Part shown: positions 15,322 through 38,798 of the stretch, piece after piece
Layout: each line of letters begins with the position of its first letter
Numbering within the stretch: the first letter of the stretch is position 1
From: an uncultured Draconibacterium sp.
GTDB lineage: Bacteria > Bacteroidota > Bacteroidia > Bacteroidales > FEN-979
DNA length: 64,000 nt
Assembly (NCBI GenBank): GCA_964590675.1
Contig: CAZPWZ010000001.1
Span: forward strand, 1,024-65,023
Reading direction: 5' to 3'
Notes under the pieces: model-generated
What the model saw: only the letters and a program-made list of their open reading frames with translations
The model's database searches: none
What the model was told of the DNA's origin: nothing
Position numbers and translations under genes: made by a program

Positions 15322-15340
15322 GCTTTTTCATTATAGTTTG

Positions 15341-16553: not shown

Positions 16554-16752
16554 CACCTAAACAACGAAATGCCCGCAACCGGCAACTTTTCATACCGCCG
16601 CACCTAGGCACCAATGGTAAAAAACCGGCACAAACATGAGTTTAAAACTAGAAACACTGGTTATTGAGAGGTTTATTGTAAAGAAAGTTAATCAGGAAGA
16701 TTGTGAGATTTAATTAAAAGAATCCAGGAAAAACTGCAACCTTCGATGAAAA

Positions 16753-16778
16753 AAGGGAGAACGTTTCCGCCCTCCCTT
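16753..16778. terminator. Weak hairpin, possible terminator downstream of 16799..17689
   Basis: AAGGGAG-N12-CTCCCTT, 20 bp beyond the stop of the minus-strand NERD gene. Confidence 0.25.
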
Positions 16779-16798
16779 CGCTTGAAAAGAGTCCCTGG

Positions 16799-17689: not shown

Positions 17690-17742
17690 GAAACGAAGGT
17701 AATAAAATATTTCCCAAATTTCTGAACAGCCCGTCTATTCTC

Positions 17743-18505: not shown

Positions 18506-18746
18506 TGGATAGGCCGATTATTTTTACCATCTCTAGTCGATGCTAATCAAGCACCCCAAAGGCATTGATTGTTTACAGGATGGCTTGGTCACTAATTTCC
18601 GGCAGAGAGTGGTCAGATGTGGAAGAAACGTCTGCATAGACCAGCCCTCGCTGGAACGACTTGACCATCTCATTTTATTGATTGCTAATAGGATATGGTG
18701 GTCAATAAAAATCGGCAGAAGGTAGTCACTGACGCCGGCCTGTCCA
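18506..18746 (+). repeat. Dispersed intergenic TIR repeat, copy C (composite, about two units)
   Basis: Starts TGGATAGGCCGATTATTTTTACCATCTCT and ends GACGCCGGCCTGTCCA (inverted termini). The left half is collinear with copy D and the right half with copy I. Confidence 0.7.
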
Positions 18747-18786: not shown

Positions 18787-21513
18787 TCAAGTGCATCCAG
18801 CACCTTCACTCCGACTGCCTCCCGGGCAGAAATACTCAATTTTCTCAGGAGGAATAGTTTCGAAAATAAAAGGAAGTGAGAGCGAATTGTCAATCTGAAA
18901 TCTTCCGATACATTGGTAATTTGGCAAGGTAAGTACATTTTCCCTCGTGAGGTAAGGCGTAAAATAGGGCATGATATAATCAACATCATTAATGCCCGGT
19001 CTGAAAAAAATCGTACTCCCCACATTACCAAGGACGGATTGCTTCATGCTTTCATTCAACTGACCAAGGGTTTGGTTCGCCAAAACAAGACTGAGCCTGT
19101 ATTTTCTGGATTCCGACATGGCATACATTATCGATTGGGAAACAAAATTCTGAAATTCATCAACAAAGAGAACGAAATCTTTACGGTCATTTTCATGGAT
19201 ATTTTCGCGTGAAAAGGCAGCATTAATTATTCTTGATAATATGATTGTCCCTAAAATATTAACTCCGATTTTACCAATTTTACCTTTCGATAGTGATACA
19301 AGCAATATTTTATCATTATCAATAATATCTCTGAAGTCAATATTACTTTTTTTTGCAGCAAAAATAGGTCTGATATATTCGTTAATCAGTAATTGGTTAA
19401 GTTTACTGGTTATATATGGAGTGAAATTTGCAAGTGAAAAATCCCCGGAAAGATTAACAGCTGTTTCCCTCCAAAAATCAACCACCTCTTTGTCTTTGCA
19501 TTTTTGTAACAAACTGTTTCTGAACTCAGCATTCTGAAAAATACTGGTTATATCGCCAATGGTACCCAAATTACCGGGATCATCCATGAGAAGGAGTAAT
19601 GAGTTTTTCATAAACAACTCGAACATAGGTCCCATAGTCTGATTTACATCATATTCCTGTCGGAAAAAATTAAATAAATCATCTATCAGAAAACTCTTTT
19701 CCTGCGGATTTTCTTTATTATATTCGAGGAGGTTAATTCTGACAGTATCTGCTGTATTTCCCGGCTCAAAGCGGATGATATCTTTAATTCTATTCTCAGG
19801 TATGTTCTCTAATATAGTTTTATGAAGATCTCCGTGCGGATCGATAACGCAAACACCCTTACCTGCATAAATCCTGTCCATGATCATTGAATAAAGGACA
19901 GTGGTTTTTCCTGTTCCTGTTTGGCCAAGTAAGTAAAGATGCTTTCTCAGATCTTCCATGCTGATCTTTATCGGAATATCACCCTCGCCGATGTTTTTTA
20001 TGCCGGTTACAATACCTGTTTTGCTCAAATTTTCAGGCATATAGCCATATATAGAATTATATGATCGAATACCAGGCATTGTAGCCGAAAATGGGTAAGG
20101 GAATTTGAAAACATTTACAATATTGCTGAAAGAATACAAGCTGTTCAAGACATAACTTTGCTTGCCTTCATCCGGCTTTTTTAATATATCGTTCTGTACA
20201 ATGGCCACAGCCGTGGTATTGACAAGTGTAGCACTGGCAAAAAAAGCTGAAGAGATGGCCGATATCAGATTTTTACCAATGCTCTTTGATTCCTGAGCTC
20301 CGTATACTTCCAGGAAAAAACATTTTGAAGGTGATTGTAAATAGGAAGACAGGGTTTGATAAGCATTTTCTTTGTCGGTTCCGGTGAAATAATATAAGTT
20401 GATCGTGTTGATCAATTCTTTCAGATGGTCAATTTCAAGTCTTGTTAATTTTACAGGTTTAAGAACGAGTTCAACCATGGTTCTGTTTTTTTGTTGAAAC
20501 AGATTTTCGCAAAAATTATCCAGTTTGATCTCAGGTTTCAATGAGGAGGGAAGTACTACCTTTTTCTCTTCCCTTTTTGTAACATCTGCCGAAAAACCAA
20601 TACTATTTGTAGAAAACTGAGCATTTACTGCAAAGTCGGGAATAAATTGCAAAAAATTACTGGTATTGAAAGGAAACAAAACATTTTTCAGATCCTTTTC
20701 GTCTACTATAGGAGCAAAATAAAAAATTGTTTTCCCATATTCCTTTTTTGGTTGCATAAACAGATCAAACTCATTCTGTATTTCGTGAAACCGAACCATG
20801 GCCTGCCAGTACGATTCGGTTTCGAACTCAAGAACAAGAACAGTGTCAATATATTCATCACCCGGTTTATACAAATACCGTAGTCGTAAGGTGAGGCCCG
20901 ATTCATAATATGTCAATGCATTCAGGAAGTTTAAATGCCAATCGTATGCCAACTGGCATAGGTATTCGGTTTCATGTTTATTGCCAAATGAAGCACAAAC
21001 AACCGAAACCAGCCGGTACGCAAAATATCCCTTAACAGTATTTTCATTTCGTGTTGAAACATAAAAAAAAGGGATTACCGCATGCTGGTCGGTTACACTT
21101 TTTGTTAAGTTTAAAAGCTTTTTTCGTTGAACCGACTGTTGAATGGCTTTTTCAATCTGCAAAAATAGAAGATCACCATCCAGGTCGGATTTGGAATAAT
21201 AATCGTTGGCTCCCAACCGGATACATTCCGAGATTCTTTTATGATCATCCTTTTCGCCAGTCAGAATGATTACCGGAATGAAATCATCAAATTCCCTTAT
21301 TTTTAAAATCCCATCAACACCCTGCATTTTCCCTGCTGAAAATGATAACCCGAGTATAACCGCGTCAATGCTGTTGGAATACTCTTTAAGTTTTTCCAAC
21401 CCATCCTCAATACTTTCTGTGTTGGTAACATTAAAATTATATTGGGTTGCAGATTTTTCAATAGCTGGCTGCCATTTTGAAAATCTTTCGTCAATCATCA
21501 GTATATCACGCAT
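18787..21513 (-). CDS. Pseudo-receiver (REC-like) / large unknown middle region / FtsK-HerA-TraD-type P-loop NTPase
   Basis: The N-terminal CheY-like fold has T and K conserved (IILTGE, GANDYYSKS), but the phospho-acceptor position reads DAVILGLSF (Gly, not Asp). The C-terminal has Walker A GQTGTGKTT, VIDPHGDL, Walker B VLFVDEFQNF and ESRKYRLSLVLANQTLGQL. Confidence 0.6.
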   Translation of the reverse strand: MRDILMIDERFSKWQPAIEKSATQYNFNVTNTESIEDGLEKLKEYSNSIDAVILGLSFSAGKMQGVDGILKIREFDDFIPVIILTGEKDDHKRISECIRLGANDYYSKSDLDGDLLFLQIEKAIQQSVQRKKLLNLTKSVTDQHAVIPFFYVSTRNENTVKGYFAYRLVSVVCASFGNKHETEYLCQLAYDWHLNFLNALTYYESGLTLRLRYLYKPGDEYIDTVLVLEFETESYWQAMVRFHEIQNEFDLFMQPKKEYGKTIFYFAPIVDEKDLKNVLFPFNTSNFLQFIPDFAVNAQFSTNSIGFSADVTKREEKKVVLPSSLKPEIKLDNFCENLFQQKNRTMVELVLKPVKLTRLEIDHLKELINTINLYYFTGTDKENAYQTLSSYLQSPSKCFFLEVYGAQESKSIGKNLISAISSAFFASATLVNTTAVAIVQNDILKKPDEGKQSYVLNSLYSFSNIVNVFKFPYPFSATMPGIRSYNSIYGYMPENLSKTGIVTGIKNIGEGDIPIKISMEDLRKHLYLLGQTGTGKTTVLYSMIMDRIYAGKGVCVIDPHGDLHKTILENIPENRIKDIIRFEPGNTADTVRINLLEYNKENPQEKSFLIDDLFNFFRQEYDVNQTMGPMFELFMKNSLLLLMDDPGNLGTIGDITSIFQNAEFRNSLLQKCKDKEVVDFWRETAVNLSGDFSLANFTPYITSKLNQLLINEYIRPIFAAKKSNIDFRDIIDNDKILLVSLSKGKIGKIGVNILGTIILSRIINAAFSRENIHENDRKDFVLFVDEFQNFVSQSIMYAMSESRKYRLSLVLANQTLGQLNESMKQSVLGNVGSTIFFRPGINDVDYIMPYFTPYLTRENVLTLPNYQCIGRFQIDNSLSLPFIFETIPPEKIEYFCPGGSRSEGAGCT

Positions 21514-21719
21514 ATTTCTTGTATTTTTCGATCAGCGAAGTTTTGAAGTTAAATCTGCTCCCAATTTATATATTTTCCAGTCAACATTTCCAATACTCGG
21601 ATACATTTTGGTGTAATACAACACCTGCCTTGAATCCTTCGCAAATCCTGATTCCACTTGTCAGATTGAACTTATTACTTGATTCAGCATTTTTTCCCAG
21701 TTGCTGATTTTATCGTGTC

Positions 21720-24179
21720 TCCTTTGCAGTCCTTGGACAGAATCCTTTGATAAGACAGGAGAACATGGAGAAATTGTTTTTAGTAGCGTTCTAGCAGTCC
21801 TTGGACGGAATCCTTTGATATGAGTCTTACGCAAATGACACAATTTCTTTGTTTGTGTTTCAGCAGTCCTTGGACGGAATCCTTTGATAAGAAAACTACT
21901 GAACAATTCTAACAACGCTTAAATTACGTTTCAGCAGTCCTTGGACGGAATCTTTTGATAAGAGAAACCTTTAAAACCATACGATATGACAAATTTTCTG
22001 TTTCAGCAGTCCTTGGACGGAATCCTTTGATAAGGTACTTAAAACCTGTTCTTATGAAAACAAAAGTCGTTTCAGCAGTCCTTGGACGGAATCCTTTGAT
22101 AAGCAATCAAAATAAACGAAAGCAATGAAAAAGATTACGTTTCAGCAGTCCTTGGACGGAATCCTTTGATAAGTCCACGATCCCGATGGCAAAATAAAGC
22201 AAAAAGTTTCAGCAGTCCTTGGACGGAATCCTTTGATAAGATTTTTTGCTACGAAGGAAACTCCTGTTTAGAATCAAGTTTCAGCAGTCCTTGGACGGAA
22301 TCCTTTGATAAGCGTAAAGAGCTCCGCCAGGCACAAAGAAATTCGTTTCAGCAGTCCTTGGACGGAATCCTTTGATAAGAAAGAAAATGAAAACACTGAC
22401 AAATTTCCATTTTGTTTCAGCAGTCCTTGGACGGAATCCTTTGATAAGATTTATAGCATACTTTATTTCTAATGTATGTTACTGATTCAGCAGTCCTTGG
22501 ACGGAATCCTTTGATAAGAAAAAAGCTCTTATGAAAAAACTGTTTCAATTTGTTTCAGCAGTCCTTGGACGGAATCCTTTGATAAGTTTTCGCTGGGACG
22601 ACCTGGAAGAAACTGCTTCGTTTCAGCAGTCCTTGGACGGAATCCTTTGATAAGACCCTTTTAAAAATGAAAAAAGTATTCCAGGCGTTTCAGCAGTCCT
22701 TGGACGGAATCCTTTGATAAGGTTAAAAATCTCTTTAAATTTTCATTATGGAGCAAGTTTCAGCAGTCCTTGGACGGAATCCTTTGATAAGATTTACAGA
22801 GAAGTAATGCTGAATCTATCACACTTGGTTTCAGCAGTCCTTGGACGGAATCCTTTGATAAGTTTTGCTCTTTATATTCATATGTTGTTTTATCGCTGTT
22901 TCAGCAGTCCTTGGACGGAATCCTTTGATAAGTTTAATCACTTTTCCCTTGATGAGTTTTTTATTCGTTTCAGCAGTCCTTGGACGGAATCCTTTGATAA
23001 GGAAGTGTTTGCTAGCTATGTGCTAGATTCTGTTCGTTTCAGCAGTCCTTGGACGGAATCCTTTGATAAGATGACAAAACATATCACCTGAAATGGAGTC
23101 GAACGTTTCAGCAGTCCTTGGACGGAATCCTTTGATAAGATGATCGAAGATTGAAACCAAATTGAAACGAATTGTTTCAGCAGTCCTTGGACGGAATCCT
23201 TTGATAAGTTATTGAAAGATTACAGCACAAGTGGTTTCCGTTTCAGCAGTCCTTGGACGGAATCCTTTGATAAGTTATTGAAAGATTACAGCACAAGTGG
23301 TTTCCGTTTCAGCAGTCCTTGGACGGAATCCTTTGATAAGAAAATAAAGAAAGGAAGTAACTATGCAAAAAGTATAGTTTCAGCAGTCCTTGGACGGAAT
23401 CCTTTGATAAGAAATTTGGAGGAGGACACCATGGATTACTACAACGTTTCAGCAGTCCTTGGACGGAATCCTTTGATAAGAAACCAATTAAAAATGCAAT
23501 CGATGGAAACGACCGTTTCAGCAGTCCTTGGACGGAATCCTTTGATAAGCTCTATCGTCGTGCTCATCCGGTATGGTATTCGTTTCAGCAGTCCTTGGAC
23601 GGAATCCTTTGATAAGAAATTATATAATTCAGTTCACACCAAACCAAAACCGTTTCAGCAGTCCTTGGACGGAATCCTTTGATAAGAACTTTGAGCAGAA
23701 AGGCGAGGCAGAATATGCCTAAACTGTTTCAGCAGTCCTTGGACGGAATCCTTTGATAAGTTAGAGAAAAATTTGTATGTAAAAATCCACAATCGTTTCA
23801 GCAGTCCTTGGACGGAATCCTTTGATAAGAAACGAAAGCAATGAAAAAGAAGATTACAATGCGTTTCAGCAGTCCTTGGACGGAATCCTTTGATAAGGAT
23901 CTTATATATATTCACAAATCTAAAAAATGACGTTTCAGCAGTCCTTGGACGGAATCCTTTGATAAGAACAGTTTTCAATCCAAATGGTATTTGGGAAACT
24001 TTTGTTTCAGCAGTCCTTGGACGGAATCCTTTGATAAGTTCAGATTTTCCCAGGAAAAGGCCATCAGGTTATTTTGTTTCAGCAGTCCTTGGACGGAATC
24101 CTTTGATAAGATACTCCAGAAAAAGAATAACAACAGCAAATTTCGTTTCAGCAGTCCTTGGACGGAATCCTTTGATAAG
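21720..24179 (-). CRISPR. CRISPR array, 36 repeats / 35 spacers. Plus-strand repeat GTTTCAGCAGTCCTTGGACGGAATCCTTTGATAAG (35 nt). Spacers 31-39 nt.
   Basis: Repeat starts were located by hand from 21720 to 24145 with a 66-74 nt period. Repeats at 21720, 21788 and 21928 are degenerate (trailer end), so the leader is at 24180+. Transcript-sense repeat is CTTATCAAAGGATTCCGTCCAAGGACTGCTGAAAC, ending in a GAAAC-type 5'-handle. Confidence 0.97.
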
Positions 24180-24639
24180 ACAATGTCTATCTGGTATTTA
24201 TAAAATATCAAAAGCAACATGTTTTATCAAAGTATTCATTTTTAATCACATTATCAAAAGATTATGAAAGTCAAACGATAATATTCGAAAATATGACAAT
24301 TTTTCTGGTTATATCCCTCACTTTTTTTTCATCATGGCTCTATTGTTATGAATAATAGCCTATTACAAATAATTTCGATTTCGCAAATGCATTATAACAT
24401 GTTCTGTTTTAGTGATTTTCGAAATTCATCCGTTTTTCCAATATGTCAAAGAACTCATTTTGTTCCTTTTAGATGAGAACGAATGGTCCCATTTTCGCAA
24501 GAAAACCAATATAATAATTTCTTATATTGGTTTTGCGAAAAGAACTTGTAAGTGTTGTTATGAATAAAACCATGCAATTCTGGTTTAGTCATCTGTATAC
24601 CAGTAAAATAAGCGTTTTATAATAAACTTCGCAAATGAA
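24180..24639 (-). promoter_or_regulatory. CRISPR leader (AT-rich, 460 bp between cas2 stop and first repeat)
   Basis: Adjacent to the intact-repeat end of the array. Contains three TTATCAAA(A)G copies (24206, 24224, 24251), a 20-bp-arm palindrome and TTCGCAAAT motifs. Confidence 0.7.
24492..24541. promoter_or_regulatory. Long imperfect palindrome/hairpin in the leader
   Basis: TTTTCGCAA(GAA)AACCAATATAA - TAATTTC - TTATATTGGTTTTGCGAAAA. The arms are 20 nt with one 3-nt bulge and a 7-nt spacer. No flanking T-run. Confidence 0.6.
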
Positions 24640-24924
24640 TTAAACAACAATCACCTGATCCATTCTGTCATTTACCCTTCCTATCCCCGACCTCTTAGGT
24701 ACACACGATTTGCAAAGATAATAATACAGTACACAATCCTCCGTTTCTTTTATCATATTTTTAAGTCTGATTTGTAATTTCATTAACTGACCTTGTGTTA
24801 CCAAACACTCGAAAACACTGTAATTGATGCGCATGCCAATGGCTTCAAGTGTTTTGGCAACCTTTGACCTGCGTTTGTCATCAGCAATATCATATGCGAT
24901 GACCCAGTACTCCTTGTCTACCAT
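24640..24924 (-). CDS. cas2: CRISPR-associated endoribonuclease Cas2
   Basis: YWVIAYDIADDKRRSKVAKTLEAIGMRINYSVFEC is the classic Cas2 N-terminus. 94 aa. Overlaps the RT-cas1 stop. Confidence 0.9.
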   Translation of the reverse strand: MVDKEYWVIAYDIADDKRRSKVAKTLEAIGMRINYSVFECLVTQGQLMKLQIRLKNMIKETEDCVLYYYLCKSCVPKRSGIGRVNDRMDQVIVV

Positions 24925-27203
24925 TTGTGAATATAGGATTTGTAATGTGGTGTTAAATCCAAAAGATAATCCCTTAAATTCCGGGCCTGGTGGTAAATTA
25001 TCTCGAATAACCTCATTTCAATGCCCCGGAATAATTCAATACCATTCAATCGCTCAATGACTTTGGTAGCCAATATTTTCTTGGTGTAAGCATCTAACAA
25101 CCCATTTTCACATTTTAACCTGGGATTCTTCATTAGCAAAGCAAACACCGGACGGTCAACTGCCTGCTGTCTGAACTCTTCTATAAAATCATAAACCAGC
25201 GAGGGCCGATTGTTTTCGGGCTTGTGAAGATAGCTTAGATTCGGGTTTAACCTCGTTCGAACCAGGGCTTCGGTAATTCGTCCATACAGAATTCCATAAC
25301 CATAATTCAGCATGCAATTGACCAGATCTGTAGCTCCCTGGCGTTCTCTTTTTTCAAAAGAGTTCTTTGTATTGATTATGATTGCCATAGTTTCCCAATA
25401 GTTCGTCGCCGCAAGACCTTCCATCGCAAATGCTTTCATGCGAAAATCATCCAGTTCTTCTTCCTCCAGCGCCAATATTTCATCAGCATATTTTATCATT
25501 GAATCACATGCTTTTACCACGGCCGACTCATAGCCTGTAATCCTGCTCTTGTAGTATTTACCGTAATATTTAATAAGGTTGACCTGGTTTGATATTTTCG
25601 CACGAACAATTTTCCGGATAAGATAAAAGCATTTCCCATTTGAATAACTTTTCAACTGGGCAAGTCCATTGGATTCTTCAAACCATTCGGGTTGATGAAT
25701 GATTGCATAAGGTTTCCCGTCATGACCTAAAAAATTGATTGAAATATGATATTCAGCGCATGCAGCAATTACATTTGACGAAAAAACAACGCCTTCACCC
25801 TGAATAATAATGGACTTCAAATTCAGCAGCGGAATCTCCTGAACTACTACATCTTTGTGTTTGACAACAATCCTCCCCTCCTGTTTACCAATCCAGGTGG
25901 ATGGTGTATTTACAACAAGATCGAAACCGGAGGATTCGAGTTTCTGATATTCCCGTTTCCGCTTTTTAACCCCTTTTACACTGCTGAAGGCTGCAGATGA
26001 TTGTTTAGCTGGTTTTAGCGTAGCTTTTTGGTTACGCCTAATGGATAATTGAGACTCAATGTACTCTCGTTTTTTAAAATTATGTTGTTTACCAAAGAAA
26101 TCAAATTTTGTTAATTCAAGGATGACCTTTTTCATTTGAGTTTCTGTACAATGTTCAATATTGGCTTTATGTCGCAGAACCGACATCAACTCATCATCAA
26201 GCAAGCACAAGGTTTCCTGCGGGACCAACTTTGCATAAAAAGTCGTTATCCCTATCAATACTTCGTGGAGTTTTTGTGTGATTAGCCCCTCTCCGATCTG
26301 TGCTGCTTCGGTCATTTTGGATACAAGTCGTTTATATTTGCGCTCGGAAAGTGATAAACCTGTCCCGGAAAAACTTATCCCGAGAAATTCAAAACCTTTT
26401 TCGACTGGAATAACTTTACTTCCTTCATTAAGATTCAGTTGCAGGTGTGATGTAATAACAGAAATTGCGTGGTTTAATGCCCTGACAGCTTCCGTTTCGC
26501 TCTTGCAAAGTATGATGAAATCATCCGCGTACCTGACATAACCAAACTGATTATCAACCATGGTTTTATCAAGAAGGTAGAGATAAAAGTTCGCAAGCAT
26601 AGGCGATATCACACCTCCCTGAGGAATGCCTTTGGTAGAGTCTTTCCAGGAATAATTTCTATTCACCCTCCCCATCGAAACAAACATCCTGATAATTTCT
26701 ACCATACCGGGACTTTTTAAAAAAGAGAGGAGTTTGCTATAGAGAAGATGATGTGGTATCGTATCGAAGAAATTGTCGATATCGCAAACAGCCAGCCAGG
26801 TTAAGTTCTCTTTTGTTATTAAGTGTTGTACCCGACAGATCGCTTTTACTGCTCCCTTTTTACTTCGATAGGCATAACTGACATTGAGGAAACTCTTTTC
26901 AAAAATGGGTGTTAGCACAAATGAAGCCGCCGTTTGTACAATTTTATCATTGATCGTAAGCAGCCCCAAGGTTCTTTTTTCTTTCTCATTCTTCGGAATT
27001 CTAGCCTCTAAATAGGGCTGCTGAATATATTTGCCGCTTTCAAGCAATGCAGCTAACTGCTCAATCTGTTTTTCGGCATGTTGCTGGTAATTTTCTACGG
27101 TTTGATGATCAATGCCCCCGGCTGTATGCTTCATTTTGACCCTTTGCCAAGCCAGGTTCAATGTTTCTTTACTGCAAAATTTTTGAAAAAGCGGGTCATT
27201 CAT
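24918..27203 (-). CDS. cas1: Reverse transcriptase-Cas1 fusion protein
   Basis: The N-terminal half carries group-II-intron-like RT motifs: DIDNFFDTIPH, GIPQGGVISPMLANFYL and VRYADDFIILC (YADD at 26520-26531). The C-terminal half carries Cas1 motifs: NCMLNYGYGILY and LSYLHKPENNRPSLVYDFIEEFR. Confidence 0.9.
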   Translation of the reverse strand: MNDPLFQKFCSKETLNLAWQRVKMKHTAGGIDHQTVENYQQHAEKQIEQLAALLESGKYIQQPYLEARIPKNEKEKRTLGLLTINDKIVQTAASFVLTPIFEKSFLNVSYAYRSKKGAVKAICRVQHLITKENLTWLAVCDIDNFFDTIPHHLLYSKLLSFLKSPGMVEIIRMFVSMGRVNRNYSWKDSTKGIPQGGVISPMLANFYLYLLDKTMVDNQFGYVRYADDFIILCKSETEAVRALNHAISVITSHLQLNLNEGSKVIPVEKGFEFLGISFSGTGLSLSERKYKRLVSKMTEAAQIGEGLITQKLHEVLIGITTFYAKLVPQETLCLLDDELMSVLRHKANIEHCTETQMKKVILELTKFDFFGKQHNFKKREYIESQLSIRRNQKATLKPAKQSSAAFSSVKGVKKRKREYQKLESSGFDLVVNTPSTWIGKQEGRIVVKHKDVVVQEIPLLNLKSIIIQGEGVVFSSNVIAACAEYHISINFLGHDGKPYAIIHQPEWFEESNGLAQLKSYSNGKCFYLIRKIVRAKISNQVNLIKYYGKYYKSRITGYESAVVKACDSMIKYADEILALEEEELDDFRMKAFAMEGLAATNYWETMAIIINTKNSFEKRERQGATDLVNCMLNYGYGILYGRITEALVRTRLNPNLSYLHKPENNRPSLVYDFIEEFRQQAVDRPVFALLMKNPRLKCENGLLDAYTKKILATKVIERLNGIELFRGIEMRLFEIIYHQARNLRDYLLDLTPHYKSYIHKW

Positions 27204-28186
27204 AATACAATCCGAAACTTTCCATATCCAAAAGTAGCGGTGGAGCCAACATGGATCCGCTCACCGGCCCAAAGCAGCTCCGACCAGGGTTCAATGGCTC
27301 CGGTATAGGTTATCTTACCTGTATAACCGTTAAGCCATTTCGCTTTTTCTTTCGTTTCAGTACCTGCGGAATTTCTTGTTTCCGAAGAGAAATGTTTGTG
27401 TTTTTTCCACACCAGGTGATGATCTTTGATGTTAATCCCCGATTCGATCTCACTTAAGGACTTTTCAATATCAAACCATGGCATTTTACAATAAATGGTC
27501 GCGATAAGTGCCAATCTTTTGAATATGGCTTTTGCAAAACGATCAAATTCAGGGATTGATTCTTCGTAATTTCCATTCGACTCAAGCCTCAGTGGCGTTT
27601 CAAAATGTAGCGTGACCTTGTTGTGGAGGCTTCGTTCCCGGGTGTTGGAAAGTGCATGAACAAAGGGCAACCCTATTGCAGGAAGGATCTCGAAAACCCC
27701 TGACTGATTTGTAAAGGAGAGATCAACCGGGTGAAATTTCTTATGGCCTTTGCCGATTCCTTCTTCACCCATTGCCCTTATTATTCCTGGTATATATGGT
27801 AGAAAGATTTCAGCGCTTTCTCCTATCAGTATCAGTTCGAACCAGAACCGGCTACCCTTGTCGAATTGGGCAGAGTTATCGGGCATGGGGTTAATGATAT
27901 AGGATTTTGGAGGTTTAGTGTACCTTCCATACCCTGGGTGATTCTTTTGAAGTTCATTGGAGAATAATTGAAAAAATGGACATTCGAATCGTACTTTACA
28001 CTGTTCGCATGGGGGCATCGTGTCAAATTTACAAACCTGTTTGCGAAATGCATCGCCCATACAACCTCTGAATGTAGCCCCCTTTGTGAACCTGGGCAGG
28101 ATAATCTCTTCATCGGCTTCGAAAGTAATCAAAAGCCTGATATAAGTAATCGATTCGATGATCTGGTCGATGATTCCGAAGGCCAT
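27200..28186 (-). CDS. cas6: Cas6-family crRNA endoribonuclease (stand-alone, Cys-rich N-terminal region)
   Basis: C-terminal glycine-rich loop HVGSTATFGYGKFRIVL. RAMP-like size (328 aa). ATGA overlap with RT-cas1. Cys cluster CKFDTMPPCEQCKVRFEC. Confidence 0.65.
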   Translation of the reverse strand: MAFGIIDQIIESITYIRLLITFEADEEIILPRFTKGATFRGCMGDAFRKQVCKFDTMPPCEQCKVRFECPFFQLFSNELQKNHPGYGRYTKPPKSYIINPMPDNSAQFDKGSRFWFELILIGESAEIFLPYIPGIIRAMGEEGIGKGHKKFHPVDLSFTNQSGVFEILPAIGLPFVHALSNTRERSLHNKVTLHFETPLRLESNGNYEESIPEFDRFAKAIFKRLALIATIYCKMPWFDIEKSLSEIESGINIKDHHLVWKKHKHFSSETRNSAGTETKEKAKWLNGYTGKITYTGAIEPWSELLWAGERIHVGSTATFGYGKFRIVL

Positions 28187-28265
28187 AAATTTCCGTTCTT
28201 TGCTGCTTAATAATTCTTATATATTTTCCTTGTCAGGTGCATTCATGTTTTAAGTAAGCAGTCAA

Positions 28266-29639
28266 TTAAGGATATAAAACATCATCAACGAAGTTGAATT
28301 TCCCGAATCCCCTCCTTGATTTTGCTCCCAGTCCAAACTCGCTGATCAGTCGTTTGATCAGCGTTAACTTATCCTCCTTACTTATCAACCCATCCACCAG
28401 CACAAGGTTAAATTGAAAAACAACACCCGGTAGTACTTTTAAAAAGGGGATGCTGGCCTTGGGACTTTGGTGGGGCTGGCCTTCCGGAGTAATACTGTCA
28501 ATCCCTAGAAACCTGCCACCCATGTTGTCAGAACGAACAGGAAACGAAGTCAAAAAATTATCTCTGGCCATCTTTTTGGTATCTGAACCAGACCTCTTAT
28601 TCTCTTTTGGAAACTCAAATAATTCATATAATAAATCATTTACTAGAATGCCATCTCCCTTTTCTTTCCTCGGATATGCGAGTAGGTTCATCTCTGACAG
28701 AATCTCAACAATGATTTCTGGCTGTTCCTCAAAAACACTTCGCAAAGCACCTTTCAGCGCTTCTCCTGGCAATACGGGCAACCCGGAGGTTTGATCAAAG
28801 TACATTCCCAATAATAGCTCACCTTTTGCGAAAGGTGTCCTCTCCGGAGAATCCGGAGTTGGGATGCCAAAATCATGCGGAATTCCTGTCCCGGATAAAA
28901 AACCGTCACCCGTTGTCCGCGCCAGGAAACTGAAATGAGTGATTAAATTACTCCTGTGTAATAACTCCTGGTCCAGTTGTAATTCGCCTATTTCCTGCTT
29001 GTATTCCGTCAGATTAAGAAGGCAAATGAGTTTATTCTGATTTTTAAAATAATTGGTATCACAATGGTCGAGTTCATCGAATGTATTCGGATAGTAATAT
29101 GTATAATAATACTGGCCTATATTAATTTTGTTTATCGCTTCGTATGAAGGAGAAACCAATGGTGGCATCTTTTTTTGCCTGATCAACTTGGGTTCTTCGC
29201 ATTCCAGCTGAGTAAAGGCACCGGCGGCTTTTTTCAGAACGGTCAATGCAGTCTCAATGAGTTCCCTTGCCATCCATCCCTCACCCCTGGTTTGCTTATT
29301 TTCGACAAAAAGTCGTAATGACATATTTGACGGGATGTTCCGGTTGCAGGAACAATCTCCTTGCCTACTCTCGCAATCCGGACATCCGTATCGCATCAAC
29401 TCTTCAGCAATAGCAACTTTCAAAACGGCCTTTGACAATTCTATATCCGACTTATACCTTCCATTACCAAAATTCCAAACCACCAGTGGCAATTCATAGT
29501 AATGCAACATGGTGAGGAACCCGGATATTTTATTGTCAAAAGTTTCCGGAATGCCCCATTTATGATCTTTTTCTTTCACAATTTCGCACTCATGCAGAAC
29601 AGCAAAAGCAGTTTTTACGATTTCTTCCGAGAATGGCAT
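28266..29639 (-). CDS. cmr6: Cmr6-like RAMP with an ~200-aa helical N-terminal extension (possible Cmr5/Cas11-Cmr6 fusion)
   Basis: The C-terminal half has GLPVLPGEALKGALRSVF and a terminal G-rich loop GLGAKSRRGFGKF. It sits last in the effector block. No separate small-subunit gene is present. Confidence 0.6.
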   Translation of the reverse strand: MPFSEEIVKTAFAVLHECEIVKEKDHKWGIPETFDNKISGFLTMLHYYELPLVVWNFGNGRYKSDIELSKAVLKVAIAEELMRYGCPDCESRQGDCSCNRNIPSNMSLRLFVENKQTRGEGWMARELIETALTVLKKAAGAFTQLECEEPKLIRQKKMPPLVSPSYEAINKINIGQYYYTYYYPNTFDELDHCDTNYFKNQNKLICLLNLTEYKQEIGELQLDQELLHRSNLITHFSFLARTTGDGFLSGTGIPHDFGIPTPDSPERTPFAKGELLLGMYFDQTSGLPVLPGEALKGALRSVFEEQPEIIVEILSEMNLLAYPRKEKGDGILVNDLLYELFEFPKENKRSGSDTKKMARDNFLTSFPVRSDNMGGRFLGIDSITPEGQPHQSPKASIPFLKVLPGVVFQFNLVLVDGLISKEDKLTLIKRLISEFGLGAKSRRGFGKFNFVDDVLYP

Positions 29640-29645
29640 AATTGA

Positions 29646-30551
29646 TTATTTAAGAATATTAAAATAACATGAACCATATCCCACGGATTTATTCGCACCT
29701 GCCTGGATACATTTACCATTCACTTCAGTTTCGAAGATGGTAATGTGGTCGGCGATTTCTGAATTGTCTTTTTTATACAGTACATCCGGTACACGTAAAT
29801 GCGTGATAAACCTTGTTCCCCGGGGGAGAAACTGTTCAACCCAAAGGTTGTTACTCTCGCCCCAATCAATCTTATTCCGGTGTTTAACCGGCAAGGCATC
29901 ATCGTTTGTCAGTTTTTCAAAATGATGTGGCTGGGTTATTACCAGGGTTTTTACCGTATCAGATTCATCAAAGACCACGTTACTTAACCACTCAGGCAAT
30001 ACTTTCGAGGGACCCTCAGTGAGTTGTGTGACAAATTTACCAAGTGTGGTCATTCGATTTATATTGATGTTTGAACCTGTATAAGCAAATATCGATGGAG
30101 TTTCTGATACATAATGTTCATTCCTGAAACTGATATAAAACTTGTGAAAATCATTCATAACAGTAGCATCAGGCTTGTAAATATCGATATCTTCATAAAG
30201 ACGGTCGAGGATTTCCCAGGATGTTACCAAAACAGTTGTGTTCATTCCTAAGGGGACAGGATGGATGGGTATCGGAATAGCCAGCAAATCAAGTTGCTTC
30301 GGGCCGTACTGCCCGACAGATAGCGCTGCACCGTTAAATCCCTCGGCTCCAAATGCTGCATCGATGAACTTCTGATTAGATGGTTTTTGCTCGAAATGCA
30401 TTTTCAGGGCCCCTTTGAAACTGGTACTTTCCACGCATGGAATGCCCCCCACATCTCGTTGCACTACTTTATCAATGCTGTCGGTCGAAGCGTTGGCCCG
30501 ACCCGGATGAAGATTTTCGATTGCCTTGGCTTGAAGAAAATAAAATTTCAT
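29646..30551 (-). CDS. cmr4: Cmr4 (Cas7-family backbone subunit)
   Basis: ENLHPGRANASTDSIDKVVQRDVGGIPCVESTSFKGALK matches the Cmr4 N-terminal pattern. C-terminal loop GANKSVGYGSCYF. Confidence 0.7.
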   Translation of the reverse strand: MKFYFLQAKAIENLHPGRANASTDSIDKVVQRDVGGIPCVESTSFKGALKMHFEQKPSNQKFIDAAFGAEGFNGAALSVGQYGPKQLDLLAIPIPIHPVPLGMNTTVLVTSWEILDRLYEDIDIYKPDATVMNDFHKFYISFRNEHYVSETPSIFAYTGSNININRMTTLGKFVTQLTEGPSKVLPEWLSNVVFDESDTVKTLVITQPHHFEKLTNDDALPVKHRNKIDWGESNNLWVEQFLPRGTRFITHLRVPDVLYKKDNSEIADHITIFETEVNGKCIQAGANKSVGYGSCYFNILK

Positions 30552-30558
30552 AGTTCAG

Positions 30559-31683
30559 TTATTTTATTCGGGTGAAACAATTATATCCAATCTTCTTAAA
30601 CTCGTCGTTATTGAGGAATGAAGTGTCGTCATCTTTCAGAAAAAGCACGGAACCTCGTTTCAACATGTACTTATTTTCTGACCGCCGGGTACTCCCTGAA
30701 ATTTCACTTTCCTTTGATTCCTTCTGGTTGATTGCGGCATAGTCCGTTGTATTTTTTACCGAAGATCGTATGTGCCTGAAAGGGGTGAATTGGTTTATTG
30801 CAAATAAGCAGCGTTCTTCAAAACCTGCTGAAACCATTGCGTCGCTCAATAGTAAAATTTTGTTCCCTTTGAGAGAACTATCATGTAAACACATTTGAAA
30901 ATCAGGCATCTCATCTGTTTCCTGAAAATGAACCAATACCTCTTTTTGTTCTTTTCCCATCACCGAAAAAATACGACTTTCGTTAACGGGCAATGTAGAT
31001 CCATCCGGAACCATTTCATCCACCTCCATCCAAAACCCGAAGGAGTATTCTTTTGGCATAACAAGAAACTCCTGCTTGTAAAAGGCCTCATCATCGGGGG
31101 TTCCATCCTTACTGTTGCGGTTGCCAGAAATCAAATGCCTTTTGAACACCTCCACGAGCGGGGTGAAAATGCCCGATGAATCGGTAAAGCCATCGGCAAA
31201 TCCCTCTTTGGCATTGAAGCCATCCAGGTAAAAAGCAGGGGTTCCCCCTTCGTTTCCATCCTTTTGTAAAAAAAGATGCGCTTTCCCAACATTCTTTCTT
31301 AAGGCAACGGGGATGAACTTGTTTTTACATGTTTCCACGAACTCGTTGGGGCGGTAAAAGAGTGGGGTCTCTTTATGAAAAAGAAATACCGGTGAAATAT
31401 CACGAATACGGCCGGTGGCACCTACCTGTTCGCTGTTTTCCCCAATCAGGTCAATAGCTTTATTAATCGCTTCATCACTGATCTTCCCACCGGCAGGGTA
31501 TAAAATACCATTGATTTGCAGTAAAAGATAACGCAGGAATCCGCGTACACCCGTTTGTTGTGGAAAATAATTACTATGTAGAAAATAGTTAGAGGTGTTT
31601 CCGAGTGGTCCCGTCTCTTCAAGGCCCTGGCCGAAGAAGAGAGAACCTGTGAATTTTACTTTAACCAGGAAGTATTTACTCAT
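30559..31683 (-). CDS. cmr3: Cmr3 (Cas5-family subunit)
   Basis: Position between cas10 and cmr4, with an 8-nt overlap with cas10. The N-terminal VKFTGSLFFGQG resembles the Cmr3 start. Confidence 0.55.
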   Translation of the reverse strand: MSKYFLVKVKFTGSLFFGQGLEETGPLGNTSNYFLHSNYFPQQTGVRGFLRYLLLQINGILYPAGGKISDEAINKAIDLIGENSEQVGATGRIRDISPVFLFHKETPLFYRPNEFVETCKNKFIPVALRKNVGKAHLFLQKDGNEGGTPAFYLDGFNAKEGFADGFTDSSGIFTPLVEVFKRHLISGNRNSKDGTPDDEAFYKQEFLVMPKEYSFGFWMEVDEMVPDGSTLPVNESRIFSVMGKEQKEVLVHFQETDEMPDFQMCLHDSSLKGNKILLLSDAMVSAGFEERCLFAINQFTPFRHIRSSVKNTTDYAAINQKESKESEISGSTRRSENKYMLKRGSVLFLKDDDTSFLNNDEFKKIGYNCFTRIK

Positions 31684-33238
31684 TTGTTTCGGAATTTAAA
31701 AAGTCAATAAAACGTATTGCAAAATAGACTAACTCAGCCTTTTTATCGGCCTCGGATGGAGCTAAATAGGCTTCTGAGATAACCTCACCCAGTCGTTTCC
31801 AATATCCTGCCTTTTTGAAGTCATGTTCACTGAAGTTTTTCTCGAGAAAATTGGACACCGTGCCACCATAAGCAACGGCATATTTCAGGAAAGGATGATA
31901 TTCAGCACTTTTTCTTCGGAATGAATTGTACTCCTCTTTTTCATTTTCGTTGACAACGCGAAAATCGATAATAAATGGAAAGATTTTGCCCAAATAAAAG
32001 AGATCTGATTTTTCAAAGCCTGTTTCGATTTGTTGACCAGAGTGTTTTTGCAGGGTTATGAAAAGTGAATTCTTTTTTTTGAATTGTCCCGACTTGGCCC
32101 TTTGAAGATTAAGGTAAGAGTTTTCAAAACTTTCCTTCAACGGATACTTGAAGAAATTCACCGAAATCCCAAAGGAAAAGGAGGGATCCACGATCTCATT
32201 GCCAAGTAACTTCGTGATGGATTCTTTATGCTTGGTTTCGAACTCCGTATCCAGTTTTTGGACCAATTCAAGGATGTTTTTCGCGTCTTTTCCATGGGGA
32301 TTGGCAAGCGGAGCAAAGAAGAGCAGGTCATCACCCCCGATGTAAACGGGAAATCCACCATAGGCTTTGATAATCTTCGCCGATGCAATACCGAATTGAT
32401 AAAGTGTTGCTGAGAAATCCATTATTTTATCGGCATCATGTCCGATAGAGGTAACAATTTTGCCCATATTATCGCCATCAGCATGTACCAGCGCAAAATA
32501 TTTGTGGAAGGGCTTGAACTCTTTACCAAAGGTGGTTTTACAGTTATTGGTAAACTGTTCAAGGCGTTCTTTTATCTCTTTAGATTGGGTTCTCTCGTAA
32601 CGATCAACATCACTGAAATGCTTTTTTATAAATGGCATGAAGTTATCGTGGCCGGAAAGAGATACAGCCGAAATTTCAAATAAAGATTCAAGGGTTTTAC
32701 TTTGCGGCCATCCGCTCTTCTTGTACAAGATAGTTTCGTTTACTTTTTCAAGGTATTCAAGAAGAACCTGGTTAATAGGAGGCATCTGGTTGAAGAGCTC
32801 CATGTTGTCTAATTGGGTAAAGAGCTTAAGGATGATGTTTTCTCCTTTTGGTATTTTGGCTTTGTAACCATGAATTTGGATGGCGTTTTGTAAAGTTTTA
32901 AGCACCTCCTCCCTTTTGGATTTTTCGGTATGTTTAAAGATGTTACAATAATCTGCTGCAATCTCGGTGAATACCTCTTTGATTTCATTGTGGATCCGTT
33001 CGATGGTCAGTTTTTCACCACTTTTATTCATTTCAAGGATAATCCTGTCGGGATATAAGCCAACAGGATATATTGCATCCTCTACATGAGGCAGGATGAC
33101 CCATTTTTTCAGACGCAATACCACCAGTTTAAAGATGGAAGAAAAAAGGAAACTGGCACCCCAGAGTTCGCGGGTTCGCCGTGCCTGCTTCAGGGTGGGG
33201 TAAATGGGACCAATGGTCAATCCGATGTATTCGCTCAT
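31676..33238 (-). CDS. cas10: Cas10/Cmr2, short form lacking the HD domain, cyclase palm motifs intact
   Basis: Begins MSEYIGLTIGPIYPTLKQARRTRELWGASFLFS, the motif that normally follows the HD domain. HADGDNMG is present, as is GGDD (codons 301-304, nt 32327-32338, checked as GGG GGT GAT GAC). Confidence 0.8.
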   Translation of the reverse strand: MSEYIGLTIGPIYPTLKQARRTRELWGASFLFSSIFKLVVLRLKKWVILPHVEDAIYPVGLYPDRIILEMNKSGEKLTIERIHNEIKEVFTEIAADYCNIFKHTEKSKREEVLKTLQNAIQIHGYKAKIPKGENIILKLFTQLDNMELFNQMPPINQVLLEYLEKVNETILYKKSGWPQSKTLESLFEISAVSLSGHDNFMPFIKKHFSDVDRYERTQSKEIKERLEQFTNNCKTTFGKEFKPFHKYFALVHADGDNMGKIVTSIGHDADKIMDFSATLYQFGIASAKIIKAYGGFPVYIGGDDLLFFAPLANPHGKDAKNILELVQKLDTEFETKHKESITKLLGNEIVDPSFSFGISVNFFKYPLKESFENSYLNLQRAKSGQFKKKNSLFITLQKHSGQQIETGFEKSDLFYLGKIFPFIIDFRVVNENEKEEYNSFRRKSAEYHPFLKYAVAYGGTVSNFLEKNFSEHDFKKAGYWKRLGEVISEAYLAPSEADKKAELVYFAIRFIDFLNSETNE

Positions 33239-33285
33239 ATTTTACTTCCTTTAAAGATCTTTAGGGAACCTGCTTTGATAATCTT

Positions 33286-34908
33286 TCATTTGCTTTCTTG
33301 TACTGTTAATTGCTGGTATTTATCACAGAGAGGGTGTCCGGCTTCATACTTTTTAGTGTTTGTAAGAATTTCAACAAAGCAATCTTTTAATCCGTGCAGC
33401 GGGATTTCGACTCCAAGTCTGCTGAAACCCTTAAAATTCAAGGCGTTCTTTTTATAAATAAATTCAAACCTTGCATCACGGAGGATTTCATTTACCGAAT
33501 CAACAATTATGAAAATCGTATTAAAAAACACCTTGAATTGTACAGGTGATGGTATGCGCTCGATATCCTTGTTCTCTGGTTTCACAGAAATGGTTATTTC
33601 TTGTTTATTATTAATCCATTTTCTATCCAGCAACCGATATTCATATTTTTCCGCCAGGCCTAACAGTACTCTGAAAAATTGATAAAAAGTTGGATGAGGT
33701 GGATCTGTTTCAAATCGCATTTCACCATTATTTTCTCTTAAATTTCTTTTAAGTAATTTAAAATCTTGCTCGTGGTCAATTTTCAATGCTTCTTTAATAA
33801 ACCTTTTTTCCCAACCGGTAGTATTGCCATATTGTCCGCAGAAATATTGCCAAAGTAATGATTTTTTATATGGCTTATTTTTTCCGCTTTTAAGTAGTTT
33901 CCAGTGATCCGTAATTATTTGTTCTAAAGATGAAAAATAATAATTGGTATCATTAAGTGCCTTTTCTGAAATCTCTTTTTGATGATGAGATGTATCTTTG
34001 AATAAAATATTTGTCGGATGTTCAACAATTATCTTATCCTTAAATTTCCATTCGCCATTTAACTCGTATCCCCAATACTTAGAATTAATAATGTCTCTCA
34101 AGCGTTGGAATTCCTCCTTTGAAGATCCATTTGGAATACTCAACTCCTCTTCTTTCTTACAAAAAGACACGAGATGTGTTGTACACAATGTAGAAATCTC
34201 CAATTCATCAATATTATGGCAGAAAACAATTTTATCCGAATTTTCTTCTTCCTTATCAGAATTAAAATACTTAAATAAAACTTTCTTAATGTCGTTTTCC
34301 GTTGACTCCTTCAGAGTAAAACAGCCAAACCCTTTTGAGCTATTATATCCCAAACCAGTAAGGATGAAAAACTCAGAAAGAGAATCCACAATAAATTTCT
34401 GAAGCCCTTTTGACGAGCAAGAAATAGCACCATGTACCTGCCGGTTTTCATAAAGAACATGAGCACGGTCCTGCATCATCGTCTTTCCGAGATATGAGGC
34501 TGTTTCGTCCACCTTGCATTCAAATGACAAATTGTAGTTAAAAGCGATGTTTTCCAGTTCTTTTTTGTTTCGGAACCAGCCGGCAAACTCACAACCACCT
34601 TCTTTACCCGCCCTGCACTTGCCCGTCTCCCCATCTTCATCCTGGCTCAGTACGCATGCCCCCGCATTCCATACTTTATCCCTGCAAATACCACAGGCTA
34701 CCCTGAACTTATTCCTGAATGCCTTTTCGGCTTCTTCCCCCTTATATCCGGTGTTCCTTTCTGCAAGAAATCTATTTAGCATCGGGGTTATTGCTTTGGA
34801 CTGTAATCCAGACCAGGACTCCAATCCAAGATGATGGATGATCGGGGTATGTTGAATTAAAGTGAAACTATACTTAGACATCTTAAAGCGGTTTTGGTAA
34901 AAATTCAT
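33286..34908 (-). CDS. cmr1: Cmr1-like RAMP protein with Cys cluster and large C-terminal extension
   Basis: Sits upstream of cas10 as in cmr operons. G-rich loop GLGYNSSKGFGCF at about residue 190. Cys-rich insert CGICRDKVWNAGACVLSQDEDGETGKCRAGKEGGCEFAGW. The remaining ~330 aa are unassigned. Confidence 0.45.
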   Translation of the reverse strand: MNFYQNRFKMSKYSFTLIQHTPIIHHLGLESWSGLQSKAITPMLNRFLAERNTGYKGEEAEKAFRNKFRVACGICRDKVWNAGACVLSQDEDGETGKCRAGKEGGCEFAGWFRNKKELENIAFNYNLSFECKVDETASYLGKTMMQDRAHVLYENRQVHGAISCSSKGLQKFIVDSLSEFFILTGLGYNSSKGFGCFTLKESTENDIKKVLFKYFNSDKEEENSDKIVFCHNIDELEISTLCTTHLVSFCKKEEELSIPNGSSKEEFQRLRDIINSKYWGYELNGEWKFKDKIIVEHPTNILFKDTSHHQKEISEKALNDTNYYFSSLEQIITDHWKLLKSGKNKPYKKSLLWQYFCGQYGNTTGWEKRFIKEALKIDHEQDFKLLKRNLRENNGEMRFETDPPHPTFYQFFRVLLGLAEKYEYRLLDRKWINNKQEITISVKPENKDIERIPSPVQFKVFFNTIFIIVDSVNEILRDARFEFIYKKNALNFKGFSRLGVEIPLHGLKDCFVEILTNTKKYEAGHPLCDKYQQLTVQESK

Positions 34909-38670: not shown

Positions 38671-38798
38671 TGGACAGGCCGATTATTTTGATCATCTCTG
38701 GCCGGTGCTGATCAACCACCCAAAAGGCATTGATCGTTAACAGGATGGCATGGTCAATAATATCCGGCAGAGAGCGGTCAGATGCAGCGATTTATCCA
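38671..38798 (+). repeat. Dispersed intergenic TIR repeat, copy D
   Basis: TGGACAGGCCGATTATTTTGATCATCTCTGGCC...CACCCAAAAGGCATTGATCGTTAACAGGATGGCATGGTCAATAATATCCGGCAGAGAGCGGTCAGATG...TTTATCCA. A further degenerate unit seems to lie at about 38575-38670. Confidence 0.7.

Follow-up and report, generated by a model that had tools for sequence, protein, structure and literature searches.

A 64-kb stretch of DNA from an uncultured Draconibacterium sp. (contig CAZPWZ010000001.1; the whole stretch is referred to as the window) encodes, as the first gene after the trailer of a CRISPR array, a 908-residue ATPase that consists of an aspartate-less receiver (REC) domain, a module resembling the N-terminal domain of VirB4 and a P-loop ATPase of the VirB4/VirD4 type. 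We hold this domain assignment with high confidence. Members of the same protein family are found either just after array trailers or inside a gene cluster rich in receiver domains. Our preferred interpretation, which we consider plausible but just short of an even call, is that the ATPase serves CRISPR or defence loci as an accessory component, with a motor gated through the aspartate-less receiver by a ligand or partner. New here are the architecture of the accessory ATPase and the combination of a sensor with a motor in defence or CRISPR loci.

A receiver joined to a VirB4-like ATPase

An earlier note, made from the letters of the window, had drawn attention to this open reading frame (ORF), and we find it as described, on the minus strand (Table 1). 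The motifs listed in the note are all present: DAVILGLSF (with Gly55), IILTGE (Thr85), YYSKS (Lys108), GQTGTGKTT (residues 530–538), VIDPHGDL, VLFVDEFQNF (781–790) and ESRKYRLSLVLANQTLGQL. The product is a cytoplasmic, intact, three-module enzyme; it has no transmembrane segment, the highest 19-residue hydropathy (1.65) being located within the ATPase core.

The N-terminal domain is matched by Pfam Response_reg (PF00072) at residues 17–109 (36.7 bits; gathering cutoff 30.2), and receiver-domain structures are the top structural matches covering only ~130 residues (TM-score 0.8–0.87 on the target, r.m.s.d. 2.3–3.1 Å). We compared it with a close subfamily of 24 sequences (59–74% identity to the window protein) and with a more diverse alignment of 36 relatives (27–70% identity) built from distant relatives. 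The observation that Gly replaces Asp while the Thr and Lys positions are retained extends to the whole close subfamily, in which Gly55 is invariant at the phospho-acceptor position and the acidic pair D8/E9 (DD in relatives), Thr85 and Lys108 are conserved. A receiver with this glycine cannot take up a phosphate. Mean identity within the close subfamily is 75% for the receiver, 73–84% for the ATPase and 63–64% for the middle module, and the pseudo-receiver is thus conserved to the same degree as the ATPase and is not decaying, which speaks for a functional domain. Most receivers of relatives at 31–40% identity keep the acceptor Asp, the segment reading ..DAVILDLxFP.. in the 36-sequence alignment, so the aspartate-less receiver is a derived trait of the close subfamily. 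The receiver is missing altogether in about one-third of the diverse alignment.

The region that the note had left unrecognised (residues ~130–520) is predicted to resemble the N-terminal domain of VirB4 by fold. The best 14 Foldseek PDB matches of an AlphaFold model of residues 128–512 (pTM 0.72, pLDDT 68.8) are all TrwK/VirB4 of plasmid R388, with E values of 4e-6 to 4e-4 and a probability of 0.99–1.00, and the full-length model (pLDDT 63.5) aligns to TrwK over 734–812 columns (E = 1e-9). Sequence identity in the structural alignments to VirB4/TrwK is ~10%. HerA is absent from the fold matches to the middle module. The module at residues ~145–450 is therefore predicted to fold like the N-terminal domain of VirB4/TrwK and, because of the Foldseek matches for both models, residues ~130–908 would form a two-domain VirB4 architecture. 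The earlier description of the C-terminal part as a HerA/VirB4/TraD-like translocase stands as regards its ATPase motifs; as modelled, residues 130–908 are VirB4-like and not HerA or FtsK proper.

The motor matches Pfam TrwB_AAD_bind, DUF87/HerA and T4SS-DNA_transf at residues 505–620 and TraG-D_C at 781–844, all above cutoffs; the scores of the type IV coupling protein (T4CP) profiles are 36.7 for TrwB_AAD_bind (cutoff 20.5), 31.5 for T4SS-DNA_transf (20.1) and 25.5 for TraG-D_C (22). Its best PDB sequence matches are the coupling proteins DotL and TrwB, and NCBIfam TraD equivalogs score far under their cutoff (52.6 versus 366). The VirB4 sequence families of Pfam are not matched (AAA_10, E = 0.059, 12.8 bits versus a cutoff of 27.5; CagE_TrbE_VirB not listed). 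NCBIfam and PADLOC profiles concur with Pfam at the superfamily level only. Walker A, Walker B, R803/K804 and Q814/Q818 are invariant across the 36 relatives. An identity with Mad8 of the MADS system was considered and rejected, as the PADLOC match (E = 1.3e-12) spans only the P-loop region (514–838) and represents generic similarity; there are no other mad genes near the ATPase gene, and the MADS preprint assigns no function to Mad8. The PADLOC model "HerA, Type III coevolved" matches weakly (E = 1.3e-6) and in the Walker A region only. By their defining features, the protein is not a member of the VirB4, T4CP, HerA–NurA or MADS groups, although as modelled it is built like VirB4 and would work in the same manner.

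The family recurs beside CRISPR arrays

We compared the gene neighbourhoods of the family. Among eight close family loci, protein comparison found no shared protein-coding neighbour, and the conclusion first drawn from it, that the adjacency to CRISPR is incidental, was overturned by scanning these and additional metagenomic loci for non-coding repeats. In the window, the distance of ~206 nt from the last degenerate repeat to the start codon and the strand shared with the cas genes are as the earlier note gave them. The CRISPR link is not a one-off: other family members adjoin array trailers with unrelated repeats, and in three of them (L003, L096 and L107) the gene follows the array co-directionally with a degenerate trailer repeat facing it (Table 1). 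The repeat sequences of all array-carrying family loci differ, and these loci are therefore independent. The array of L096 is itself preceded by a Cas6 gene (PADLOC E = 2e-21). Adjacency of the family to CRISPR arrays is thus recurrent.

Genuine arrays are present in the fetched DNA of 6 of the 22 other family loci (the window excluded), compared with 2 of 143 control loci, fetched in the same way for ATPase-only relatives, where the signals are weak (Fisher p = 7e-5), a test that is biased upwards because the controls are mostly from Patescibacteria, which rarely bear CRISPR. CRISPR arrays occur at a density of about 1–2 per few megabases, and chance proximity of such a kind would still be well below 1%. 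A further "array", in L005, was rejected as an ordinary 64-nt tandem repeat.

Two small features were noted at individual loci. A 75-residue NrN-like fragment lies 0.7 kb upstream of the ATPase gene in L097 (3126–3353), and a protein of ~100–130 residues with no Pfam match adjoins the ATPase gene in L007 (12717–13109, minus strand), L101 (10357–10746, minus strand) and L100 (60–356, plus strand), with 39–53% identity; in L007 it stands between the ATPase gene and the convergent array.

The CRISPR–cas locus of the window

The window holds a complete type III-B locus upstream of the ATPase gene. Its Cas10 has the GGDD motif and no HD domain, and a fusion of NrN to a CorA-like domain is encoded nearby, its residues 18–251 matching NrN (PDB 9lq9, E = 4e-50); these two features together indicate that the locus depends on signalling. 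Among type III systems it corresponds to the SAM-AMP/CorA class (PMC10600005) and looks like a variant of that arrangement, with the calcineurin-like phosphoesterase gene, which overlaps the start of the NrN–CorA gene by 4 nt, as a possible second degrading enzyme. The presence of an RT–Cas1 fusion together with Cas2 means that spacers could be acquired from RNA.

The array repeats end in ...CTGAAAC on the minus strand, and two degenerate trailer copies are closest to the ATPase gene. A scan for sigma-70 promoters and terminators detected no terminator-like site in the gap between the trailer and the start codon. Two consecutive repeat–spacer units at 23174–23305 are 100% identical, that is, a spacer has been duplicated. 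The note had also remarked on TTCGCAAAT upstream of the gene and in the leader; it is found three times in the window (21638, 24380 and 24628), but its significance does not hold up, as at least three matches were obtained in 22 of 100 shuffles.

The remark that the ATPase gene is as AT-rich as the CRISPR locus agrees with our values: the gene has a GC content of 0.367, and the array and the cas genes have 0.390 each, whereas the flanks reach 0.448 and 0.414. A direct repeat of 114 nt has its two best copies, identical at 99 of 114 positions (87%), exactly on either side of the ATPase gene, array and cas block, and two shorter copies lie at 15239–15347 and 18677–18719 (also placed at 15243 and 18668), making four in the window (65–114 nt). 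The repeat is non-coding, with no Rfam match and no tRNA nearby, and may be an island boundary, an attachment site or a dispersed intergenic element. Around the ATPase gene Rfam gave no match, and the window has no tRNA gene.

Distribution of the family and other gene contexts

We searched 1.84 billion cluster representatives and found ~45 more distant full-length relatives at 31–40% identity. A profile search of a word-indexed protein database with the diverse alignment returned the same close family only. The family is patchily distributed, in Bacteroidota, Firmicutes and Methanolobus. The earlier note had named embedding in conjugative elements as what would speak against a defence role; no full-length relative was found on PLSDB plasmids (72,556), INPHARED phages or IMG/VR contigs. 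Matches listed from genome collections (at least 600) are mainly ATPase-only relatives from Patescibacteria, with two full-length proteins among them. Among the matches listed, the nearest large motor clade consists of Patescibacteria proteins of 800–950 residues with 35–43% identity over residues ~450–890. They appear to correspond to the VirD4-like proteins among the 5,713 T4CP homologues reported in that phylum, which are near-universal, mostly far from virB4 and possibly exapted (PMC12102498). The neighbourhoods of these Patescibacteria genes are conserved, with SecY–adk–map upstream and ndk or RNase J downstream, or with cysS upstream and dnaX downstream (loci L031, L035, L038, L042 and L050, about 2400–11400; L017, L023 and L026). 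In the closest relative of the window protein (L097, 75–78% identical) the ATPase frame is split into 73 and 651 residues (4075–6616), and in L101/L102 the gene is split into 235 and 661 residues (L101 7611–10304); these split genes could be pseudogenes or assembly errors.

Two gene groups recur around the ATPase. A receiver-rich cluster occurs in L009, L090, L091, L093, L104, L106 and L108 and partly in L008, a Methanolobus metagenome-assembled genome; its hosts are Bacteroidota and uncultured organisms, besides that archaeon. It is composed of a protein of 900–1400 residues, one of ~220–266 residues, a REC-like protein of ~255–415 residues and the ATPase, with one to three additional REC-like proteins of 590–840 residues at most loci. 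Nearly all of the partner proteins are soluble and lack a Pfam, PADLOC or PDB sequence match; being soluble, they do not make up a membrane type IV secretion system (T4SS). The gene cluster is conserved and previously undescribed, and includes four or five receiver-like proteins; upstream of it, L091 encodes a ParA-like protein and a CHAT protease. The second group, here called the AAA/DegT block, encodes an AAA+ ATPase of 581–598 residues, a DegT/DnrJ/EryC1-like protein of 314–381 residues and an ORF of 58–63 codons, and lies directly upstream of the ATPase gene in L001, L094 and L096, whereas in L093 it is found 6 kb downstream. Cas6 and a seven-repeat array follow it directly in L096 and an array precedes it in L094, and the block may be another CRISPR-linked module. 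The idea that it is a divergent type III effector (large, small and three RAMP-sized proteins) was rejected, as the PADLOC Cas matches are to Cas6 only and its family of 524–695 residues bears REC-like motifs.

None of the partner families of either group is found anywhere in the 64-kb window. The earlier description of the ATPase as stand-alone holds in part only, since relatives, among them the close L001 and L096, are encoded in operon-like groups together with several receiver-domain proteins, an AAA+ ATPase and a DegT-like enzyme. Defence neighbours other than CRISPR are McrBC, WYL and DUF2779 in L001, a restriction-modification pair in L096 and NERD in the window; several family loci have metabolic neighbours only (L005, L092 and part of L094).

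Comparison with known systems

VirB4/TrwK is the best structural match both for the middle module and for residues ~130–908 as a whole, and on the models both would have two parts, an α/β domain at the N terminus and, at the C terminus, a P-loop motor belonging to the FtsK–HerA superfamily. The window protein differs from it in having an extra N-terminal receiver and no VirB4 sequence-family match. No T4SS components (VirB3/6/8-like proteins, pilin, coupling protein or relaxase) turned up in either the window or those other loci that are annotated by gene and Pfam. Type IV coupling proteins (VirD4/TraD/TrwB/DotL) are closest to the motor by sequence, whereas the window protein has no N-terminal membrane helices and no relaxase or T4SS linkage; as far as sequence matches reach, coupling proteins and the Patescibacteria homologues lack the receiver and the VirB4-N-like module.

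The nearest analogues described so far, by function and context, are HerA–NurA pairs, a CoCoNuT ATPase and Cam2. HerA–NurA pairs that co-evolve with type III CRISPR loci also include an FtsK–HerA-superfamily ATPase encoded beside type III CRISPR–cas cassettes (PMC6546367). Unlike them, the window protein has neither NurA or another nuclease partner nor a HAS-barrel, and belongs to a different clade of the superfamily; no HerA-type nuclease or NADase partner (NurA, Sir2, DUF4297) is found at any family locus. As the earlier note had said of conjugation genes and of these three partners, none is found by Pfam among the 36 largest ORFs of the window, nor is a relaxase or integrase. Extended type III-A CoCoNuT systems encode an EccE3-like and VirB4-like ATPase that lacks a membrane anchor and is predicted to be hexameric (PMC11090510). 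Likened by description, it too is an anchor-less secretion-type ATPase in a defence locus, but with another N-terminal module, no receiver and an McrBC-type context. The protein Cam2, short for CRISPR-associated membrane protein 2, has a REC domain in a type III CRISPR-associated protein without a partner kinase, proposed to sense cyclic oligoadenylate (PMC11229360); again by description, that domain is joined to a transmembrane effector, whereas the receiver of the window protein is joined to a soluble motor ATPase. For the REC domains of conflict systems, a role as kinase-independent nucleotide switches has been proposed (PMC8195603). The main texts of surveys of type III accessory genes from 2018 and 2024, searched by term, name no receiver-fused or VirB4-like ATPase.

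A possible mechanism and its alternatives

Because its relatives repeatedly sit just after arrays, the ATPase is a candidate for a new helper in CRISPR immunity. If it works as VirB4 and other FtsK–HerA ATPases do, its motor would assemble into a ring, a mode of action established for the superfamily (Iyer et al. 2004, as cited in PMC8195603). The receiver-fold domain would gate ring assembly or ATP turnover, and the gate would answer to a bound partner or small molecule, not to a histidine kinase. In the window locus, the obvious candidate for this role is the type III second messenger that Cas10, with its GGDD motif and no HD domain, produces. Messenger sensing is the most attractive specific hypothesis because the locus makes a second messenger and because Cam2 and the conflict systems provide precedents for REC domains in such a role. 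Any contribution to immunity, and the substrate on which the motor would act, are likewise putative. The most complete proposal combines these elements into a new class of CRISPR-ancillary effector, of which the window protein would be the first example: the pseudo-receiver would sense the type III second messenger (SAM-AMP in this locus) or a Cas partner and thereby turn on a VirB4-like ring motor, whose targets would be nucleic acid or protein complexes of the invader or the host, and the family would have been recruited from a larger, undescribed receiver-rich conflict system with its own phosphorylation-independent signalling; taken as a whole, we consider this rather unlikely.

Several observations weigh against a CRISPR-accessory ATPase gated in this way. 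The structural models are of moderate confidence (pLDDT 63.5 and 68.8), with low TM-scores to VirB4 (0.2–0.45). No match to CARF or SAVED was obtained in the 908-residue protein with Pfam, NCBIfam or PADLOC, and it has no recognisable effector domain (nuclease, protease or pore). Most receivers of the wider family keep Asp, and the family lies in clusters beside several other receiver proteins, which argues for a signalling network of the family's own rather than dependence on Cas10. Besides the upward bias of the enrichment test, the DNA available for 16 of the 22 other family loci lacks an array; array-free loci with 8–10 kb of upstream sequence are L001, L009, L088–L091, L093 and L108. The linked cas type is visible in the window only, and the Cas6 proteins of the window and L096 show no sequence relationship, so that nothing points to co-evolution with any one CRISPR type. 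Finally, the two additional copies of the 114-nt repeat suggest that it may be a dispersed intergenic element and not an island border.

The main rival is that the ATPase is an independent conflict or defence component of a separate receiver-rich system, or a solo derivative of one, that comes to lie near arrays through clustering in defence islands and does not communicate with Cas proteins. We regard this as doubtful but serious. The conservation of the receiver-rich cluster in seven loci, the recurrence of the AAA/DegT block, the variety of non-CRISPR defence neighbours (McrBC, WYL, DUF2779, restriction-modification, NERD), the Asp retained by most receivers of the wider family and the many array-free loci all favour it. 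Island clustering leaves unexplained, however, that in four independent loci, whose repeats are unrelated, the gene comes first after the trailer, co-directional and no more than 400 nt away. The AAA/DegT block itself adjoins Cas6 and an array in one locus (L096) and an array in another (L094), and the partner families of such a system are missing from the window.

The remaining alternatives assign the ATPase to ordinary cellular or conjugative functions. That it is an exapted T4SS-type ATPase with a non-defence role (DNA uptake, segregation or protein remodelling), like the VirD4-like paralogues of Patescibacteria, is improbable given the patchy distribution, the highly variable neighbourhoods without a common neighbour in the eight close loci, the GC content of the gene below that of its flanks and the recurrence of array, Cas6, McrBC and restriction-modification neighbours. 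Such a role would fit the housekeeping neighbourhoods of the nearest large clade, the possible exaptation of T4CP homologues mostly far from virB4 (PMC12102498) and the loci with metabolic neighbours only; yet sequence matches to the Patescibacteria relatives cover residues ~450–890 only, leaving the REC and VirB4-N-like modules unaligned. The predicted VirB4-like fold and the Pfam and NCBIfam matches to TraD, TrwB, TraG and VirD4 families could also point to an orphan coupling protein or VirB4 in a decaying remnant of an integrated conjugative element. We consider this very unlikely, as the window (its 36 largest ORFs) and the 22 other loci yielded no relaxase, VirB3/6/8-like, pilin or integrase genes, none of the 72,556 plasmids yielded a full-length relative, purifying selection is strong over the full length with the catalytic motifs intact, the NCBIfam TraD scores fall far short of their cutoffs (52.6 versus 366) and membrane anchors are missing. 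Least credible, with a negligible chance, is an ordinary two-component output phosphorylated by a nearby histidine kinase: kinases are encoded in the window at 10683–11861, 42519–43637, 49180–51813 and 57330–59105, but all 24 close relatives have Gly in place of the acceptor Asp and no kinase is a conserved neighbour at any family locus.

Much of what type III CRISPR systems do is carried out by ancillary effectors, and new sensor domains besides CARF and SAVED continue to be added to those known from them; a receiver as a type III sensor has so far only been proposed, for Cam2. If our preferred interpretation of a receiver-gated accessory ATPase is right, such a motor at array trailers would be a new combination of sensor and effector, with an output of a new kind, in which mechanical work takes the place of a nuclease, protease or pore, and VirB4/VirD4-type motors would have been domesticated outside secretion systems. 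The family also points to an uncharacterised multi-gene system of four or five receiver-domain proteins and two ATPases, present in bacteria and one archaeon.

Table 1. Features of the ATPase gene and its surroundings in the window, and of other family loci (percentages are identity to the window protein)
Locus	Feature	Position	Strand	Remarks
Window	ATPase gene, complete ORF	18787..21513	−	stop included; 908 aa; ATG start at 21513
Window	Receiver (REC) domain, residues 1–125	21139..21513	−	Pfam Response_reg and structure matches
Window	Gly55 codon, phospho-acceptor position	21349–21351	−	end of β3
Window	Middle module, residues ~145–450	20164..21081	−	two α/β sub-domains; no Pfam family; AlphaFold and Foldseek
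Window	P-loop motor, residues ~451–890	18844..20163	−	FtsK–HerA superfamily (VirB4/VirD4/TraD branch); helical insertion ~600–730
Window	Walker A GQTGTGKT, residues 530–537	19903..19926	−	G530, G533, G535 and K536 invariant
Window	Walker B VLFVDE, residues 781–786	19156..19173	−	catalytic Glu786; D785 and E786 invariant
Window	Gap, array trailer to start codon	21514..21718	−	205 nt; last degenerate repeat ends near 21719
Window	CRISPR array	21719..24180	−	about 36 repeats (CTTATCAAAGGATTCCGTCCAAGGACTGCTGAAAC on minus strand)
Window	Type III-B cas block	24640..38290	−	complete locus, upstream of ATPase gene on the same strand
Window	Cas2	24640–24924	−	94 aa
Window	RT–Cas1 fusion	24918–27203	−	761 aa
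Window	Cas6, two RAMP proteins, Cmr3	within cas block	−	
Window	Cas10	within cas block	−	GGDD present, HD absent
Window	540-aa protein	33286–34908	−	no Pfam match; between Cas10 and NrN–CorA
Window	NrN–CorA fusion	34905–37358	−	817 aa; NrN residues 18–251, CorA-like 654–727
Window	Calcineurin-like phosphoesterase	37355–38290	−	311 aa; directly upstream of NrN–CorA
Window	114-nt direct repeat, left copy	18506..18619	+	99/114 identical to right copy
Window	114-nt direct repeat, right copy	38671..38784	+	
L003	Array, co-directional	end ~376 nt upstream		degenerate trailer repeat facing gene; 71%
L096	Array, co-directional	end ~252 nt upstream		degenerate trailer repeat facing gene; 7 repeats; 70%
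L107	Array, co-directional	end ~320 nt upstream		degenerate trailer repeat facing gene; protein without receiver; 34%
L006	Cas6 3′ end and one decayed half-repeat retained			70% (91% identical to L096)
L007	Array, convergent	0.7 kb away		63%
L092	Array	5.5 kb away		32%
L094	Array	8 kb away		37%
L009	Receiver-rich cluster	4273–18268		
L090	Receiver-rich cluster	2745–16743		
L091	Receiver-rich cluster	4252–16584		
L093	Receiver-rich cluster	1363–16653		
L108	Receiver-rich cluster	343–14532		
L096	Unknown proteins ending in AAA/DegT block	8–9749		
L094	Unknown proteins ending in AAA/DegT block	25–7992		
L001	Unknown proteins ending in AAA/DegT block	1250–9934		
L093	Unknown proteins ending in AAA/DegT block	18900–22691		

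Other genes of the window

Just outside the left copy of the 114-nt repeat lie a gene for a NERD-domain protein (16799–17689, minus strand), which has weak PADLOC similarity to DRT "RTasNERD-Hel" and to PglW, and a gene for a 253-residue protein with no family match (17743–18504, plus strand), the convergent neighbour of the ATPase gene. Both may be further defence genes. The 253-residue protein was compared with the upstream partner of ~255 residues in L008 and L009 and is unrelated to it. A likeness between the 1654-residue ORF of the window and the gene ending the cluster of L091 was dismissed as coincidence, being due to a common secreted C10 peptidase. A gene for a 1035-residue protein with a Fib_succ_major domain (59186–62293, minus strand) has a composition unlike the rest of the window (GC content 0.54–0.60) and contains 2.6 copies of a 294-nt tandem repeat (60159–60919).

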